Assembly (NCBI GenBank): GCA_964546655.1
Contig: CAZJKL010000001.1
Location: 2,093 to 66,092 of the forward strand
From: an uncultured Bacteroidales bacterium
GTDB taxonomy: Bacteria; Bacteroidota; Bacteroidia; Bacteroidales; CAZJKL01
Reading direction: 5' to 3'
DNA: 64,000 nucleotides
The translations under genes and the position numbers were made by a program. How positions within the stretch are numbered: the stretch's first letter is position 1; each line of letters begins with the position of its first letter. A model generated the notes under the pieces. That model was given only the letters and a program-made list of their open reading frames with translations. It made no database searches and was not told where the DNA came from. Below, in pieces: positions 7,596 through 29,482 of the stretch.

Positions 7596-8633
7596 TTAAA
7601 GATTGTTTACAATTTTTAAAAGATCACTATCAATAAAAAATTCTGATGTAATATTGCCATTAATAATAGGAGCTTTAATTCCATTATTAAAATTAATATT
7701 TCCTTCAAAAACTCTTGCTTCGTCCCAAATGTTGTTTTTAATAAAACTATTTAAAGTGAAAGCACCTCCTTCGATTATTATTGACTGAATTTTTCTTTTA
7801 TAAAGATTATTTAAAATACTTGTTATTAAATTTCCGTCGAATTTAATTGTTTCATATTCAATATTTAATTCGTTTACACTTTCTTTTTCTGTGAAAACAA
7901 TAGTTTTAATTGTATTATCAAAAATATTTAAGTTTTTTGGAAGAGATAATTCTTTATCTAATACTATTCTTAAAGGATTTTTCCCTTCAAACAATCTTGC
8001 ATTAAGTTTAGGGTTATCAATTAAAGCAGTGTTAGTACCAATTAAAATTGACTGTTCTTCGGTACGCCACTTATGAACCAATACTCTTGATTGAAGAGTT
8101 GAAATCCAATTAATTTCATTAGTATCACCTTCTTGTCTTATTTTGTCAATAAATCCATCAATAGTTTGAGCCCATTTAAGTATAATGTAAGGACGATGTT
8201 TTTCGTGAAAAGTATTAAATCTCTTATTCAGGTTTTTACAGTCTTCTTGTGATACGCCAACCTCTACTTCGATACCTGCATTTTTTAATTTCTCAATACC
8301 TTTCCCCGATACTTCTGGATTTGGGTCAATTTGACCAATTATAACTTTGGGGATTTTATTAGCAATAATTAAATCGGCACAAGGCGGAGTTTTTCCTGTA
8401 TGTGAGCAAGGTTCTAAATTAACATATAAAGTAGAATCTTTCAATAAAGATTTATCTGAAACAGAATTTATAGCATTAACTTCGGCATGAGCTTCTCCGT
8501 ATTTTTGGTGATAGCCACTTCCAATAATTTGGTTATTGTGAACAATAACACAACCAACCATCGGATTAGGTGCAACATTGCCAATTCCTTTTGATGCTAA
8601 TTCGATGCATTTTAACATGAATTTATTTTCCAT
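7596..8633 (-). CDS. ribD: Bifunctional diaminohydroxyphosphoribosylaminopyrimidine deaminase / reductase RibD
   Basis: PNPMVG, HAE, EPCSHTGKTPPC zinc motif; KWAQTIDG and IEGGA reductase motifs. Confidence 0.97.
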   Translation of the reverse strand: MENKFMLKCIELASKGIGNVAPNPMVGCVIVHNNQIIGSGYHQKYGEAHAEVNAINSVSDKSLLKDSTLYVNLEPCSHTGKTPPCADLIIANKIPKVIIGQIDPNPEVSGKGIEKLKNAGIEVEVGVSQEDCKNLNKRFNTFHEKHRPYIILKWAQTIDGFIDKIRQEGDTNEINWISTLQSRVLVHKWRTEEQSILIGTNTALIDNPKLNARLFEGKNPLRIVLDKELSLPKNLNIFDNTIKTIVFTEKESVNELNIEYETIKFDGNLITSILNNLYKRKIQSIIIEGGAFTLNSFIKNNIWDEARVFEGNINFNNGIKAPIINGNITSEFFIDSDLLKIVNNL

Positions 8634-8652
8634 AAAGCTTCTTTATATTAAA

Positions 8653-8778
8653 AAAGAGGCTGTCTAAAAAGAGAGAAGATGTCTTTCTGAGTAAAACGAA
8701 GAACCTAATAATAAATGCATTAAGATTTTTCACTTCGTTCAAAATGACAAAAATATGTTCTTTTCGGACAGCCTCTTT
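8653..8778. repeat. Nested inverted-repeat element (MITE/REP-like), copy 1
   Basis: Outer IR 8653-8672 / 8759-8778 matches at 18/20 (aaagaggctgtc...gacagcctcttt). Inner IR 8680-8706 / 8723-8749 has 18/27 Watson-Crick pairs, plus 5 G-U pairs on the minus strand. TTAA at both ends. Confidence 0.8.
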
Positions 8779-8781
8779 AAT

Positions 8782-10335
8782 TTATTTAACAATCATTTTA
8801 TTTGTAATTCTTTCTCTGCTTGTTGTAAGAGTGTAGAAATAAACCCCACTTCCCCAATCATTAGCATTTATTTGAACTTTATTTTCACCACTTTGTTTTC
8901 CTAAATCTTTATTATAAACAACTTTTCCTGTAATATCAGATATTGAGATTACTACATTATCGGTATAACCCAAATCATATCTAATATTTGTAGTATTTTC
9001 GAAAGGATTAGGATAGTTTTTAACTGATAAATTATTATTGGTTTCATTAATACCAATATTTTTACTTGCAGCCAAATTATAATCAATTATAAAGTTTTCA
9101 TAAGAATAAGTATTTTCAAAAGCATAAGTATTTATATAATAACCATAATAAGAATCACTAGGGTCAAATTTATTATATTTATTTACAACACCACTTTCAT
9201 TATAATTATCATAACTATAATAAGGGTAAGTATCAGGGCCGTTTTCTTCAAAAGCAAGTAAATTAATATAATTTAAATTTGAAGCAGTATCTTGATTTTT
9301 AACCCATTCATATCCTGGAATAAATCTAAATGTTGAAGTAATCAAATGCTTAGCCTCAATTTTAAAAGCCTTTGGAAGAGGAACATCAATTTTATGACAA
9401 TAAAAATTATTGCTAGAAGGCAATAAAGAGCTATCTTTAAATGTTTCACCAGTTAAAGGAACTTTTATTGTTATTACACTATCAGCAATAAGATTGTCGT
9501 TATTAATATTATATGTCAAAGCATTAATATAAACAGTATCAGTATTAAATTCTGTTTCCATTCCTACAAAATAAGCAGTTCTAATTCTAGTTGTTTGAAT
9601 ATTTAAATCAATTTCAACTAATAAAGTGTCAACAATTTCTCTCTTTAAAACTAGAGGAATTCTGTTGTCAAAATGAGAATAAACACTATCAATTGAATAA
9701 ACAACAGAATCATAGTAAACAGTAAAAATACTGTCAGGAATTATAGTAGTATCAATTAAAGACATTGCAGAATCTCCCATATATTCATCTAGAATATAAT
9801 AATTTGTGTCGTCAGGATTTAAAGAAGTATCAACTATTGCTACATTTATATTTAACGTAGAATCTGGAGTTATTAAAGTGTCATTATATGAAACAGAATC
9901 TAAATTTCTATTATAAATTCCATAAAAACTTAAACCATGTAAATAATAATCATCATTTCTGCCAATATTATACTCACTTGGTTGAATAAAATAATCAGCA
10001 GCAGGGTCTAATATTGTTGAAATTGCATGAATAAAAGGTGTTCCGTAATCAGGGTTTCCATAACTATCTTGAAATTCATAAGCAATGGTAGTGTCAGGGA
10101 ATAATGGACTAATATGAATAATATTTTGATTGTCGCCAACAACTTCTTTAACCATAAAAGCATAGTTGAAAATTCTGTCGAAACTGCCTTTTGTTATTCT
10201 TTGATTTTTGTAATCTAAACTTACTTCTTTTTTAATTGAAGGAAATTTATAATTTGATTTTTGTTCAAGTAATTTTTGCGAAAAAGCAATTTGGAAGATG
10301 CTTAAAATTGCAATAAAAATTAATAGTTTCTTCAT
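8782..10335 (-). CDS. T9SS type A sorting domain-containing secreted protein, unknown function
   Basis: Signal peptide AFS|QKL; C-terminal NYPNPFENTTNIRY...ISDITGKVV...SGVYFYTL...KMIVK sorting domain. Confidence 0.85.
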   Translation of the reverse strand: MKKLLIFIAILSIFQIAFSQKLLEQKSNYKFPSIKKEVSLDYKNQRITKGSFDRIFNYAFMVKEVVGDNQNIIHISPLFPDTTIAYEFQDSYGNPDYGTPFIHAISTILDPAADYFIQPSEYNIGRNDDYYLHGLSFYGIYNRNLDSVSYNDTLITPDSTLNINVAIVDTSLNPDDTNYYILDEYMGDSAMSLIDTTIIPDSIFTVYYDSVVYSIDSVYSHFDNRIPLVLKREIVDTLLVEIDLNIQTTRIRTAYFVGMETEFNTDTVYINALTYNINNDNLIADSVITIKVPLTGETFKDSSLLPSSNNFYCHKIDVPLPKAFKIEAKHLITSTFRFIPGYEWVKNQDTASNLNYINLLAFEENGPDTYPYYSYDNYNESGVVNKYNKFDPSDSYYGYYINTYAFENTYSYENFIIDYNLAASKNIGINETNNNLSVKNYPNPFENTTNIRYDLGYTDNVVISISDITGKVVYNKDLGKQSGENKVQINANDWGSGVYFYTLTTSRERITNKMIVK

Positions 10336-25417: not shown

Positions 25418-25533
25418 AAAGTGGATATCCAAAAAAGATGTCTTTCTTTTTAAAGTGAAAGAGCTAACAGTCAAGTTATTAAGATTTTTTAGTTCGTTCA
25501 ATAAGATTTTTTTATTTTTTAGACAACCAATTT
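25418..25533. repeat. Degenerate second copy of the nested inverted-repeat element
   Basis: 25436-25506 aligns ungapped to 8677-8747 at 53/71 nt by manual count (shared blocks agatgtctttct, attaagattttt, ttcgttcaa). Outer IR 25418-25436 / 25515-25533 matches at 15/19. Confidence 0.7.
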
Positions 25534-25540
25534 AAGTTAC

Positions 25541-28500
25541 TTATTTTAATAATACTTTTTTAGAAATTTTTGTTGATTCATTATTTAAAACAATAAGATA
25601 AACACCTGAAGATAATTCTTTTGTGTCAAATTTAGTTGCATTTAATCCATTTTCAGTTGTTCCTTGATTGCTAATTAGTAATCTTCCAGTAATGTCATAT
25701 AACTGAGCATAGTATTTGTCTCCTTCAGATGAATTAAATAAAATAGTTAAAGTTTTATTATTTTTAGAGTCAATCATATTAATATATTCAAAATCAATTT
25801 GTTCAAATTTGTCGCATCCAACATAAACAATTTGAGAATATGATGAAGTGCCGTCAAAATCTGTTTGTTTTAATCTGTAATATGTGCCTTCAGAATAAGG
25901 AGACATATCATAATATTCATAATTTCGTTCAATATTACTACTTCCTGAACCTGTAATTGTAGCAACTACTTCATAATTAATCCCATCATTGCTACTCTCT
26001 AAAGTAAAATAATCATTATTAATCTCTGTAGCAGTAGTCCATTTAACAATAGAAATTTCGTTTTCACAAGAAGCAGTAAAACTAATTAATTCAATAGGTA
26101 ATATTTCAATGCCTTCGTAAGCACCTATATGAGGAATAGATCTTCCTGTGCCATGTATATCGTCTGTAACAGATAAATCCACACCAGCTTTAAGGTCATC
26201 ATATAAAATATCTAAAAAGCATGAAGAACAATTGATAAATTTAGGATCTACTCCAAAAGAGTTTGCATCATTTGATGTCCCGTTAGAAACCATATCAGCA
26301 CCTTGCCAAGACGCTAACGTAGTATATGAAGCAAAAGAGTGCCATTTAGCAATATTAGCTCCATTAGGGGCATATAAAATATTATTATTACAATAGTATA
26401 TTTTATCATCATCAGCATCATAAGTATCATAAAATTCTAAACAAGCTCTAGATGAACTGCTACTTGTTGTATATAAAATATTATTTCTTATATCCCAGTC
26501 CTTTTGTGTGTCATAAGAGTTTGTTCCATCATTAAAATAAACACATGATTCGGATGTATACATAGAATTATGATATAGTTGATTTCTTTTATGAATATTT
26601 TCAGTATAATCATCATAAGAATAAAGTCCATATTTAGAACTACAAATAAAATTGTTATAAACACTTATTCCATCAGTTGAATTATCACAATATACTGCAG
26701 CAAAACCGTTTTTAACTTTATTAGAATAAATATTAAAAGGGTTATCCGAAGAAGTGTTTTTACCACAAGCATATAAATACATTCCAGAGTTATCAGCGTC
26801 AGTGTTTCCAAATAATGTAATTAAGTTATTAAAAATATTATAACCTTGTAAATTGTTATTATAATCTCCACCAACTAATTTAATAGCAGTTTTTACCGAA
26901 GAAATGGTGTTGTCATTAATTGTATTTTGCGTAGGCCAAAACTCATTACCAGCACTTTGGAAATAATGCTTACAATAAATAGCATAAGCATCAGCCCCAG
27001 TCATTGTAATAGTATTAAAAGAAATAGTATTAAAGTCATTATCTCCAAGTAAGTGTATTCCATATCCATCTTCACTTGAATTAGTAATTATATTTTTGCT
27101 TATTATACAATTATTTCCATGGATTGGAGCATCGGTAATAGATTTTAAATAAATATTAATACCAAGAGAAGCAGTTGTTGACGTTATATCTAAATAACAA
27201 TTTTTAACTGTAAGATAATCACCATATTCTTTATAAATATTGTGTTTATTATCATTACTATTGTTAAATCTTATACCATCAATCCATATATATTCAACAT
27301 CATAAGAAAGAGACATATTATTAGAAGTAGCTTCAGCAGTAAAAATTGTTTTTGATGAACCAGCACCTATAAATTTAAGTGGTGCAGTTGAGCTCCCCAT
27401 GTCCGAAGCACTTAATGTTATTGATTCGGTATAATCGCCAGCATCAATTAATAAAATATCAGAATCTGTTAAAACATAATTATCAATAATATCTTGAACG
27501 CTGTTTACCGCTTTATTAGGTGCTAAACCATCATAAGTAGTTCCATTATATGCTCCTCCAATAGCTGTTGAGTAAATATCTCCAGTAGTTGAAGCATCAT
27601 TAATATAATAATTAACAGCAGAAGCTGATGGTATCACTGTTGTTTCACCTAAAGAAGCCCAACTTGTTCCGTATCTTTTGTAAAATTTTAAATAGTATGT
27701 TGTTCCATTAGTTAAACCTTTAACTAATTGTGTTGTTGTTAAGCCTTTGTAAACAACATAGCCACCACCAAAAGATGTTCCTGATGAATAAGTTGCATTA
27801 GCAGTATAAGCAGAACCATCTCCAGAAGGAGTTCCTGTTACACTCGAAGAAGCTTTAGCAACAATCATTATTTCATCAGTTTGGCAACCTGGGTTAGTCC
27901 ATGATAGAACAGCTACACCATTTCCTGAAATTGGAGTATTAATTGTAGCACTTGTATTTGCTCCAGAAATTGTAACTTCATCATAAGAATCAGCACAAGC
28001 ACCATTGTCTAAAGTCCATCTAAAAATATTATTTCCATCACCAAGAGATGTTATTCCTGATGTAGCAACAGAAGGAGTGGTAATAATACCTTCTCCACTT
28101 ATTAAAGCCCAAGTGCTACTACCACTTGCTGGAGTATTTCCCGAAAGTGTTGCAGTTGTTGCACCGCAAATTATTTGATCGCTTCCAGCATTTGCTACAG
28201 TTGATGTATTAACTGTAACTGTAACGCCTGTTGCATCAGAACTATTGCAAGAAACATCAGCAGAGCATCTGCATTTAACCTTATATGTTGTTGTTGTGTT
28301 TGGACCAACTCCTATAATTGAAGAGTAAGCAGAATTATATGTTTCAGCATTAGTCCAAGTTGTACCGTTCCAATAAGTGTTGTCACTTCCAGTACCAGTG
28401 TACCATGCATATTCCCAAGAACCACTACATCCTGAACCACCAACTTGTCCGGCACCAAGAGTATAACTACTTCCAGAACATATTGTTTTAGATTCTTCAG

Positions 28501-29482
28501 AATCATAAACAGCATTAAGAGTAGGAGCAGTGCAAACACCTAAGCACGTTTTTTCAATAACATTTGATTCAGCTGCTCCAGTCCAATCAGATTTACATAC
28601 TACTCTAGCCAATCTCTTATACCAAGTAGTAGTAGAAATAGAAGAAGGGTTGTATGTAGCAGAGTTTGAGCTAGAAATATCAGACCAAGGGCCTGTATTA
28701 CTTGTAGTTGAATATTGCCATTTATACTCAATAGCACCACCAACTTGATCGCTAGCAGCAACCGAGCTTGTAATATTTGAAGGATCCCATGTTCCTGAAT
28801 TTGATTCATCACTAGCAATAGTTCCTCCAATAGTTGGGTTTGTGCATGATATTGTTAATTTGTTATTTATATAAAAATTCCCCGCTGTACCTGTAACATT
28901 AGCATCAAAAGTTGCTTTTGTATCATTTCTGTAATAACAATATCTTGATGTACCTGCTGTATATCTAAATTGTGGCCCATTGCTCGAATTAGTTGCTTTA
29001 TAATTCAAATAATAAATTTCTAAGTTATCTGTATTATTGTATGCAAAATCTGTAATATCAATAGTTTTATAGTTTGAATTATAATCAATTGTTCCGTCAT
29101 AAACTAAAGTCCAACTACTAGTTAATTCAGCACCAGTAGGTCGTGCTGTAGTTACAGTTGCTGCACTTGTATGCCTCATATATATTTTTTGAGTAGTCCA
29201 AGAAGTAACACTACCAGTATTGTTTTCAAATGCAATATGAGTTATGCTACCATTAGTAGCAATTTCACTTTGTAAATAAATCATCTTTGACCAACCATAA
29301 TTGTAATTTCTTACAAAAGGAGCATTTGTTTGATATGTAGTTCCGGTTCCAATTGTTCTGGTTGTTTGACTAAAAACATTTAAACTAAACATTAATATTA
29401 AGAATACAAATAATGATATTATTTTATCAGAATTTGTTTTGCTAAATTTAATTATAAATTTATATTTATAATTTGTTTCCAT
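25541..29482 (-). CDS. Large T9SS-secreted multidomain protein (Ig/PKD/FN3-like domains, right-handed beta-helix, sorting domain)
   Basis: VFS|QTT; EYKWQYS..TWYKR Ig-like; ANAGSDQIIC PKD-like; GLTNGTTYY FN3-like; Asn/Ile-rich beta-helix; LPIELISF..YYRLKQTDFDG module; YDITGRLL..SGVYLIVL..KKVLLK sorting domain. Confidence 0.88.
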   Translation of the reverse strand: METNYKYKFIIKFSKTNSDKIISLFVFLILMFSLNVFSQTTRTIGTGTTYQTNAPFVRNYNYGWSKMIYLQSEIATNGSITHIAFENNTGSVTSWTTQKIYMRHTSAATVTTARPTGAELTSSWTLVYDGTIDYNSNYKTIDITDFAYNNTDNLEIYYLNYKATNSSNGPQFRYTAGTSRYCYYRNDTKATFDANVTGTAGNFYINNKLTISCTNPTIGGTIASDESNSGTWDPSNITSSVAASDQVGGAIEYKWQYSTTSNTGPWSDISSSNSATYNPSSISTTTWYKRLARVVCKSDWTGAAESNVIEKTCLGVCTAPTLNAVYDSEESKTICSGSSYTLGAGQVGGSGCSGSWEYAWYTGTGSDNTYWNGTTWTNAETYNSAYSSIIGVGPNTTTTYKVKCRCSADVSCNSSDATGVTVTVNTSTVANAGSDQIICGATTATLSGNTPASGSSTWALISGEGIITTPSVATSGITSLGDGNNIFRWTLDNGACADSYDEVTISGANTSATINTPISGNGVAVLSWTNPGCQTDEIMIVAKASSSVTGTPSGDGSAYTANATYSSGTSFGGGYVVYKGLTTTQLVKGLTNGTTYYLKFYKRYGTSWASLGETTVIPSASAVNYYINDASTTGDIYSTAIGGAYNGTTYDGLAPNKAVNSVQDIIDNYVLTDSDILLIDAGDYTESITLSASDMGSSTAPLKFIGAGSSKTIFTAEATSNNMSLSYDVEYIWIDGIRFNNSNDNKHNIYKEYGDYLTVKNCYLDITSTTASLGINIYLKSITDAPIHGNNCIISKNIITNSSEDGYGIHLLGDNDFNTISFNTITMTGADAYAIYCKHYFQSAGNEFWPTQNTINDNTISSVKTAIKLVGGDYNNNLQGYNIFNNLITLFGNTDADNSGMYLYACGKNTSSDNPFNIYSNKVKNGFAAVYCDNSTDGISVYNNFICSSKYGLYSYDDYTENIHKRNQLYHNSMYTSESCVYFNDGTNSYDTQKDWDIRNNILYTTSSSSSRACLEFYDTYDADDDKIYYCNNNILYAPNGANIAKWHSFASYTTLASWQGADMVSNGTSNDANSFGVDPKFINCSSCFLDILYDDLKAGVDLSVTDDIHGTGRSIPHIGAYEGIEILPIELISFTASCENEISIVKWTTATEINNDYFTLESSNDGINYEVVATITGSGSSNIERNYEYYDMSPYSEGTYYRLKQTDFDGTSSYSQIVYVGCDKFEQIDFEYINMIDSKNNKTLTILFNSSEGDKYYAQLYDITGRLLISNQGTTENGLNATKFDTKELSSGVYLIVLNNESTKISKKVLLK

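Follow-up and report, generated by a model that had tools for sequence, protein, structure and literature searches.

Repetitive extragenic palindromic (REP) sequences of the CGTC-tagged superfamily, in which TGTC is a common variant of the tag and CCTC another, form hairpins that consist of a stem of 8–9 bp with A-T pairs at its first two positions, a 4–5-nt loop and a short unpaired tail (Di Nocera, De Gregorio & Rocco 2013, PMC3733652). Heads-out dimers—often heterodimers—predominate, lie ~20 nt or less from the 3′ ends of genes in convergent or co-directional arrangement and in some species, e.g., H. neapolitanus, are nested in a longer palindrome. The superfamily, in which four families (CGTC-1 to CGTC-4) are distinguished, takes in dRS3 of Neisseria as well as RPE-4 and RPE-6 of Rickettsia, and none of its CGTC-type REPs has been seen to flank a Y1 gene (PMC3733652). 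Hairpins of this superfamily, of the NTS and SRM type, are bound and cut, only as single-stranded DNA (ssDNA), by Ssn nucleases, single-domain GIY-YIG proteins of ~94 aa (family cd10448) whose genes are flanked by NTS/SRM hairpins (Chenal et al. 2025, PMC11893778). Here, a repeat of related layout is described from the genome of an uncultured Bacteroidales bacterium (2.96 Mb in 127 contigs, 27.5% GC). The window, i.e., the whole analyzed stretch of 64,000 nt (C1:2093-66092, C numbers denoting contigs), contains two copies of a nested palindrome, copy 1 and copy 2, each directly behind a gene for a cargo protein of the type IX secretion system (T9SS). Both copies belong, with a probability that we put at about 0.8, to a dispersed non-coding family of REP type that carries CGTC/TGTC tags and plays no role specific to T9SS.

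The basic unit of this family is a hairpin of ~28 nt composed of a TGTC tag, a 9-bp stem with a conserved tandem G.A, a loop of 3–5 nt and a CTN tail. The tandem G.A occupies stem positions 6–7 in the context …CTGA(G/A)C / G(C/T)GAAG…, and the hairpins are of two sequence types: the GAGC type, with the consensus TGTC-(A/T)TTCTGAGC-RAA-GCGAAGAAT-CTA, and the GAAC type, with the sequence TGTC-ATTTTGAAC-GAA-GTGAAAAAT-CTT. When the tag, the tandem G.A and a complementary stem are combined into a monomer pattern, 86 matches are obtained in the genome with its strict version and 97 with its relaxed version, against 0–2 in shuffled genomes. The tag reads TGTC in 95 of these 97 monomers and CGTC in one, and the tail conforms to CTN in 83/97. 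About half of the units carry the 3-nt loops GAA or AAA and many the 4-nt loops GGCA or GACA, and opening of the closing C-G pair would extend them to 5–6 nt. Stem position 1 is A-T in 44 and T.T in 33 of 94 units; position 2 is T-A in 76/94.

That the hairpin itself is the conserved structure is borne out by covariation within each arm. Subfamilies differ by paired changes (TTC/GAA, TTT/AAA, TGC/GCA, CCC/GGG, TAC/GTA, and TGT/ACA), and beside the loop, too, G-C in some corresponds to A-T in others. Among 62 distinct units, which had been chosen with a pairing filter, double (compensatory) changes are found at four of seven stem pairs; the covariation score of 0.56 compares with 0.23 for shuffles, none of 500 of which reach it, and with at most 0.135 when the partners are slid. 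With the pairing filter removed, so that units are anchored on the tag and the G.A core only, at least six of seven pairs still form in 84/94 units. Covariation analysis had been proposed as a check by the initial annotation of this locus, a reading of the letters made earlier.

Of the hairpin pairs, 22 are head-to-head with the tags outward, seven tail-to-tail and three in tandem. The head-to-head pairs have a modal spacer of 20 nt and are, with two exceptions (20/22), heterodimers of a GAGC-type and a GAAC-type hairpin. What had been annotated as a single 27-bp inner inverted repeat is thus better described as two separate tagged hairpins, since the covariation lies within the arms. Its non-canonical pairs arise because the two hairpin types differ from each other, the differences being compensatory within each hairpin. 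In consequence of these differences, the long hairpin of a heterodimer is predicted to be far less stable than that of a hypothetical homodimer (−21 vs −46 kcal/mol as RNA, −6.7 vs −31.5 as DNA). An excess of G-U pairs on the transcribed strand had also been reported; it holds for copy 1 and is private to that copy, the consensus long hairpin having two G.T pairs on one strand and three on the other.

The two window copies are indeed related to each other, as had been claimed. Their best ungapped 71-mer matches at 53/71 positions (300 shuffles: mean 33, maximum 39), and a gapped alignment yields ~70% identity across ~140 nt. The outer arms of copy 1 comprise 20 nt and are complementary at 18/20 positions (90%), those of copy 2 (25418-25436 and 25515-25533) 19 nt with 15/19 (79%). 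Whichever strand is taken, copy 1 folds far better than its shuffles (z −6.0 and −5.5). Copy 2 is decayed and folds no better than shuffles (z −0.9). The reported spacing of 3–7 nt to the stop codons of T9SS-sorted genes is likewise accurate, both open reading frames (ORFs) carrying PF18962 (Table 1). Copy 1 fills a gap of 148 nt that separates the stop of the 517-aa gene from the start of a ribD-like gene, the two genes being encoded on the minus strand, and a gap of identical size is found in the sole other contig with this ribD protein; the ribD start codon lies only ~20 nt beyond copy 1 (8634-8652). Transcription of the ribD-like gene probably runs through copy 1, starting at the T9SS gene or still farther upstream. 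Copy 2 is flanked on one side by a plus-strand gene and on the other by the stop of the 1313-aa gene with the T9SS tail.

Table 1. Coordinates of copies 1 and 2 with their parts and neighboring genes (window positions) and of related features elsewhere in the genome (contig positions)
Feature	Position	Strand	Evidence
Copy 1, full-length composite of ~125 nt (outer palindrome and head-to-head tagged hairpin pair)	8653..8778	.	nhmmer 105 bits, model positions 2-125
Outer palindrome, left arm (AAAGAGGCTGTCTAAAAAGA), copy 1	8653..8672	+	inverted-repeat comparison
Outer palindrome, right arm (TCTTTTCGGACAGCCTCTTT), copy 1	8759..8778	+	inverted-repeat comparison
Left tagged hairpin, copy 1, GAGC type, slightly decayed: TGTC-TTTCTGAGT-AAA-ACGAAGAAC-CTA	8680..8707	+	
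Right tagged hairpin, copy 1, GAAC type, minus-strand reading: TGTC-ATTTTGAAC-GAA-GTGAAAAAT-CTT	8722..8749	-	strict monomer match C1:10817-10840(-); arm occurs unchanged in other phyla
T9SS-sorted cargo gene, 517 aa, stop (8782-8784) 3 nt from copy 1	8782..10335	-	PF18962 (Por_Secre_tail) 54.6 bits; C-terminal match C1:10880-11107, window 8788-9015
ribD-like gene, 345 aa, start 20 nt beyond copy 1	7596..8633	-	Pfam dCMP_cyt_deam_1 and RibD_C
Copy 2, decayed full-length composite of the same family	25418..25533	.	nhmmer 39.7 bits, model positions 2-121
Left tagged hairpin remnant, copy 2 (TGTCTTTCTTTTTAAAGTGAAAGAGCTA)	25439..25466	+	
Right tagged hairpin remnant, copy 2	25481..25506	-	
T9SS-sorted cargo gene, 1313 aa, stop (25541-25543) 7 nt from copy 2	25541..29482	-	PF18962 42 bits; C-terminal match C1:27642-27851, window 25550-25759
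Tag-side partial copies	C6:44886, C6:45136, C6:9796, C7:68588, C16:49117, C20:21749, C24:1710, C46:20787, C46:20890		
Small GIY-YIG gene, intact	C2:57105-57422		PF01541
Small GIY-YIG gene, intact	C3:27787-28143		PF01541

An iterated nhmmer search of the whole genome, seeded with copy 1, recovered 78 units, which merge into 59 sites; units score on both strands because the element is near-palindromic. Only ~16–20 units are of full length (~125 nt), and the remaining ones—more than half of all—lack the outer arms. Several units lie at contig ends, and the true copy number is therefore higher. The context of the sites was evaluated with long ORFs as a proxy for genes (n=2452, 90.6% coding). Of 46 sites with two neighbors, 17 lie in convergent, 25 in co-directional, and four in divergent gaps, compared with 262 (11%), 1796, and 267 such gaps genome-wide. 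Measured to 3′ ends, the median distance of a site is ~30 nt, and measured to 5′ ends, 123 nt. With ~59 sites, an enrichment in convergent gaps (17/46 vs 11%) and a position close to 3′ ends, the one of two earlier suggestions that invoked a MITE/REP-like family (MITE, miniature inverted-repeat transposable element) proves right in kind. Relative to transcription, orientation in co-directional gaps is even (10:14, p=0.54), and in several of these gaps, that behind copy 1 included, the next start codon is just ~20 nt away.

Besides single dimers, the genome contains tandem arrays of hairpin pairs without the outer palindrome, e.g., at C20:21766-22163, where four units follow one another with a period of 106 nt. 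Further arrays, or mosaics with other repeats, resembling clusters of bacterial interspersed mosaic elements (BIMEs) or NIMEs, are present at C6:44779-45119, C7:68482-68800, C24:1-420, and C73:1-214, and several arrays of hairpin pairs terminate contigs. Three copies (C15:32470-32755, C15:44548-44832, and C36:19850-20046) share a different left flank and are embedded in a 200–285-bp repeat made of other repeat pieces, i.e., a larger mosaic element. Partial copies consisting of the tag and the 5′ half of the stem are found directly upstream of full hairpins, nine on the tag side and none on the tail side, which suggests a directional process in which the tag is read.

In the full-length form, the hairpin pair resides in the loop of a terminator-like outer palindrome (AAAGAGGCTGTC…GACAGCCTCTTT) whose GGCTGTC/GACAGCC stem is flanked by runs of A and T. 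Since the intermediate segments, too, are kept among copies, the composite of ~125 nt as a whole is the unit that has been multiplied. At least 23 copies of the composite, with 78–81% identity, occur in another metagenome-assembled genome (MAG) of the same order and a different family, Bacteroidales MAG STF1_8 (G023). Compared with that genome, the outer stem shows compensatory exchanges, one pair changing from C-G to A-T and a second from A-T to C-G, with double changes at seven of 18 pairs in all.

The family extends well beyond these two genomes. A covariance model of the dimer (R1) matches 77 of 301 sampled genomes of the order at E<=1e-3 and 93 of 301 sampled genomes of the phylum, other classes included, at E<=1e-5; the dimer is thus present in ~25–30% of the sampled Bacteroidota. 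The 27-mer AAGATTTTTCACTKCGTTCAAAATGAC recurs exactly in MAGs of Bacteroidia and in Flagellimonas sediminis, and likewise in MAGs labeled Clostridia, Tepidanaerobacteraceae, Peptococcaceae, and Acutalibacteraceae (L025, L027, L033, L034, L038). In at least three of the latter (L025, L027, L038), with labels comprising at least Clostridia, Acutalibacteraceae, and Tepidanaerobacteraceae, a GC-richer partner arm, GTCATCCTGAGCG(A/T)AGCGAAGGATCTT, lies beside the 27-mer. The identical arm across phyla points to inter-phylum transfer or to very strong constraint. No Rfam family reaches its gathering score anywhere in the window, and at E<=10 copy 1 and a GC-richer relative return generic hairpins only, far below threshold; neither the arm sequence nor peptide artefacts such as FAQNDK could be retrieved from full-text literature. 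For annotation, the family matters in that its units break assemblies and can be mistaken for small ORFs; a dimer model of the R1 type would mask them.

Several other explanations have to be weighed. The composite could be a bidirectional terminator or a stabilizer of mRNA 3′ ends that is selected by the host and repeated incidentally, a view that is compatible with a dispersed REP-type family but, as an account of its existence, rather unlikely. It agrees with the outer stem GAGGCTGTC/GACAGCCTC, behind which each strand has a run of T, with the recurrence of the identical GGCTGTC/GACAGCC stem as compact terminator-like hairpins right after genes (C10:7775, C20:21182, C30:30915, and C41:5269) and with the preference of the family for 3′ ends and convergent gaps. 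A loop insert of ~100 nt, however, is not canonical, a consensus scan for terminators finds none at copy 1, and the outer stem is missing altogether from over half of all units. Moreover, with starts only ~20 nt downstream in several co-directional gaps, the position of ribD suggests read-through rather than termination.

The same outer arms of 18–20 bp could be the terminal inverted repeats (TIRs) of a classical MITE that is moved by a DDE transposase with TTAA or TA duplication and carries the hairpins as mere cargo. Terminal inverted repeats are certainly present, the composite is kept whole in two families of Bacteroidales, and near-identical copies in G023 suggest a recent burst. Yet no consistent target duplication accompanies them. 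The TTAA bounds described earlier exist at both ends of copy 1 and are confined to one of the 16 full copies; per end, TTAA is found in 4/16 and 8/16, the rate among intergenic 13-mers taken at random being 28%. TTAA was accordingly rejected as a target duplication, eight copies in G023 likewise having no duplication in common. A transposase with matching ends had also been called for. No gene or transposase enclosed by matching GAGGCTGTC ends was found in the genome, a draft assembly in which absence is unproven, and the genes lying between neighboring repeat sites are CheW-like, small helix-turn-helix-like, and RhuM-like, with no transposase among them. Since members without outer arms are numerous and still repeated, some of them in tandem arrays, this explanation appears improbable.

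Mobilization in trans, as a REPIN, by a Y1/HUH transposase of the REP-associated tyrosine transposase (RAYT) type is more improbable again. Inverted REP doublets are the very architecture of REPINs, and the genome encodes three small Y1_Tnp proteins (C21:42600-43061, C10:34710-35156, and C17:40583-41152). The flanks of these Y1 genes, however, carry REP types of their own—the GTAG-type CCGTAGG…GACATTATGG, GCTTAAAAGCAACTGCAAT, and GGGCACGGATTNCAAATCCGCGCC—so that at least four separate REP-like families coexist in the genome, and the TGTC hairpin is present in none of the three loci, just as no Y1 gene flanked by CGTC-type REPs has been described in the literature (PMC3733652). The Y1/HUH loci, IS200-like or RAYT-like, together with their own hairpin arrays span C21:42600-43330, C10:34710-35400, and C17:40300-41570. 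The Y1 transposase-like gene on C21 adjoins a CRISPR array (C21:42205-42540) with a 36-nt repeat ending …AATTTCTACTATTGTAGAT on the other strand, which we take to resemble the repeats of Cas12a (type V-A) systems. A further match to Y1_Tnp lies in a 1265-aa protein similar to N6-adenine methyltransferases (C89:1299-5096; motifs DPACGSGAF and NPPY), in the form of an insert with the HUH-like motif GDHMHIL that is followed by Pro/Ser-rich repeats; the identical Pfam match occurs in a 1269-aa ORF of G023 (G023:C26:26015-26374).

The last explanation follows from the placement of the two window copies 3–7 nt past T9SS genes, on which the earlier suggestion of a structure shared by the 3′ untranslated regions (UTRs) of secreted-protein mRNAs was based. 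The genome contains ~80 genes with PF18962. T9SS genes make up 6/66 of the 3′ ends adjoining sites, an excess of about threefold over the background of 3.2% (p=0.02); when the background is restricted to genes with at least 100 nt downstream, it rises to 5.4% and the excess drops to p=0.14, although there is some circularity in this control, the gap being made by the element itself. Only six of 59 sites lie behind T9SS genes and the other 53 do not, the family accumulating behind genes of every kind, and 73/79 T9SS genes have no copy. The uniform orientation seen in the window does not extend to the genome, where it is 3:3 behind the six T9SS genes and even with respect to transcription in general. 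With sites at T9SS genes so few and their orientation mixed—the outcome named beforehand as deciding the matter—a reading in terms of secreted proteins is therefore refuted. A T9SS-mRNA-specific 3′ UTR structure acting in localisation, stability or translational coupling thus retains hardly any probability, the more so as G.U counts in the consensus are symmetric between strands and the element also occurs in Clostridia-type genomes. The phylum of those genomes is not known to possess a T9SS. Attraction of the element by GGCTGTC-stem terminators at T9SS genes was considered as well and rejected (2/20, p=0.13). A tempting link between a structured element and T9SS genes is thereby removed as false.

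For the dispersed TGTC-tagged family itself, the candidate partner is a small GIY-YIG nuclease. The proteins encoded by the two intact genes of Table 1 are 105 and 118 aa long, have PF01541 as their only domain and fall into no informative NCBIfam family; the remaining GIY-YIG loci are a gene with an in-frame stop, a short match near a contig start, and uvrC. Both intact genes are bracketed by hairpins that share the apex TGAGC-N3-4-CGAA with the TGTC form; of the ~12 such non-TGTC hairpins genome-wide, eight lie clustered beside the two genes. A more direct association is seen in another genome of the same order, G222, where a homologue of 102 aa with 41–45% identity (L046:1163-1878, i.e., G222:C41; gene at 1480-1788) is bracketed by dimers of the TGTC family, upstream at 1163-1246 and downstream at 1797-1878 (59 and 46 bits), with a TGTC-family monomer 20 nt before the gene start. 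This locus is laid out like the NTS-ssnA-NTS arrangement, in Bacteroidales. Among the 301 genomes of the order, 45 contain both dimer and homologue, 32 the dimer only, 58 the homologue only, and 166 neither (odds ratio 4.0, p=4e-7, phylogeny ignored).

Some observations weigh against the two-hairpin, nuclease-linked interpretation. Nearest-neighbor energies prefer one long hairpin over two separate ones, and it is therefore covariation alone that carries the two-hairpin form. In the genome studied here, it is not the dispersed TGTC form that flanks the two intact GIY-YIG genes but a related hairpin of low copy number, which has a GC-rich stem and no GTC tag. Of the 77 dimer-positive genomes, 32 have no close homologue (E<=1e-8), some of which (G023, G173) have more distant small GIY-YIG genes. 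The published degenerate SRM pattern HGTCWYN(0-2)YYVSBRHN(0-5)WNVSBRGN(0-2)RNCYNB fits none of the 97 units and has no match genome-wide. Finally, the nearest solved relatives of the GIY-YIG proteins are UPF0213 structures (1zg2, 1ywl). On balance, we regard recognition of the TGTC hairpins by an Ssn-like GIY-YIG nuclease as an evenly poised proposition.

Under such a nuclease link, the element would act at the level of DNA. Once extruded in ssDNA, a tagged hairpin would be recognized by a small Ssn-like nuclease with GIY-YIG as its single domain, and nicking beside the tag, followed by copying or repair, would be a candidate route for its spread. The same nick-and-copy events may also be the source of the half-copies on the tag side (nine vs none). 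The heterodimer design would serve to avoid a stable cruciform, and copies would persist behind genes because insertions there are tolerated. A transcribed composite would probably end or stabilize the upstream mRNA as well, as a by-product. A bolder version, which we consider unlikely, holds that the composite is a self-contained vehicle—a terminator-like palindrome with deliberately mismatched recognition hairpins—that is spread by the GIY-YIG nuclease without any transposase. It would account for the one-sided arrays of half-copies, for a heterodimer design that leaves the hairpins intact and cripples the cruciform, for the conservation of the composite across families of Bacteroidales, and for the letter-for-letter identity of the arm in Clostridia-type genomes. 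If true, the vehicle would be the GIY-YIG counterpart of REPIN-RAYT. For the young NTS/Ssn topic, the Bacteroidales GIY-YIG gene bracketed by dimers and the partial copies on the tag side only provide testable points, as does the finding that differences between the arms weaken the long cruciform while leaving each hairpin intact.

Compared with known systems, the composite recalls terminator-bearing MITEs such as the Correia elements of Neisseria and the ERIC/BIME mosaics of enterobacteria, with which it shares a nested intergenic palindrome of ~125 bp that is likely part of the 3′ end of the upstream mRNA, as well as a tendency to form mosaics and tandem arrays; in contrast to these, there is no TA/TTAA duplication here, nor any sequence similarity. 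With the REPIN-RAYT system (Bertels & Rainey 2011, PMC3116915), it has in common an inverted REP pair with a short spacer that forms a hairpin of ~70 nt, tens of copies, extragenic location, and a non-autonomous character. REPINs, however, are GTAG-tagged and have a flanked Y1 transposase, whereas the Y1 genes of the present genome carry other REPs. Similarity to the NTS/Ssn system resides in the hairpin layout, which is that of NTS (CGTCATTCCCGCGMAVGCGGGAATCYRG) with the tag on one side, in the genes of ~100-aa GIY-YIG proteins bracketed by related hairpins, in the G222 homologue next to TGTC dimers, and in the co-occurrence of both partners. The two nevertheless differ in that the SRM pattern is absent from the units (0/97) and in that the proteins look nearer to UPF0213 structures. 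The CGTC-tagged REPs are alike in most respects: a one-sided tag, a stem of ~9 bp opening with A-T and T-A, a short loop and a short unpaired tail, dimers that are mostly head-to-head and often hetero, proximity to 3′ ends, the lack of a flanked tyrosine transposase, and nesting in a longer palindrome. Differences concern the tandem G.A in the stem, the tail (CTN instead of CCA), the loop (3–5 instead of 4–5 nt), and the host, here an AT-rich uncultured member of the Bacteroidales. The repeat thus fits the CGTC-tagged REP superfamily of the Neisseria dRS3/NTS type, so that a conspicuous repeat of Bacteroidota can now be placed among REP hairpins with CGTC/TGTC tags, a group for which the partner nuclease family became known as recently as 2025.

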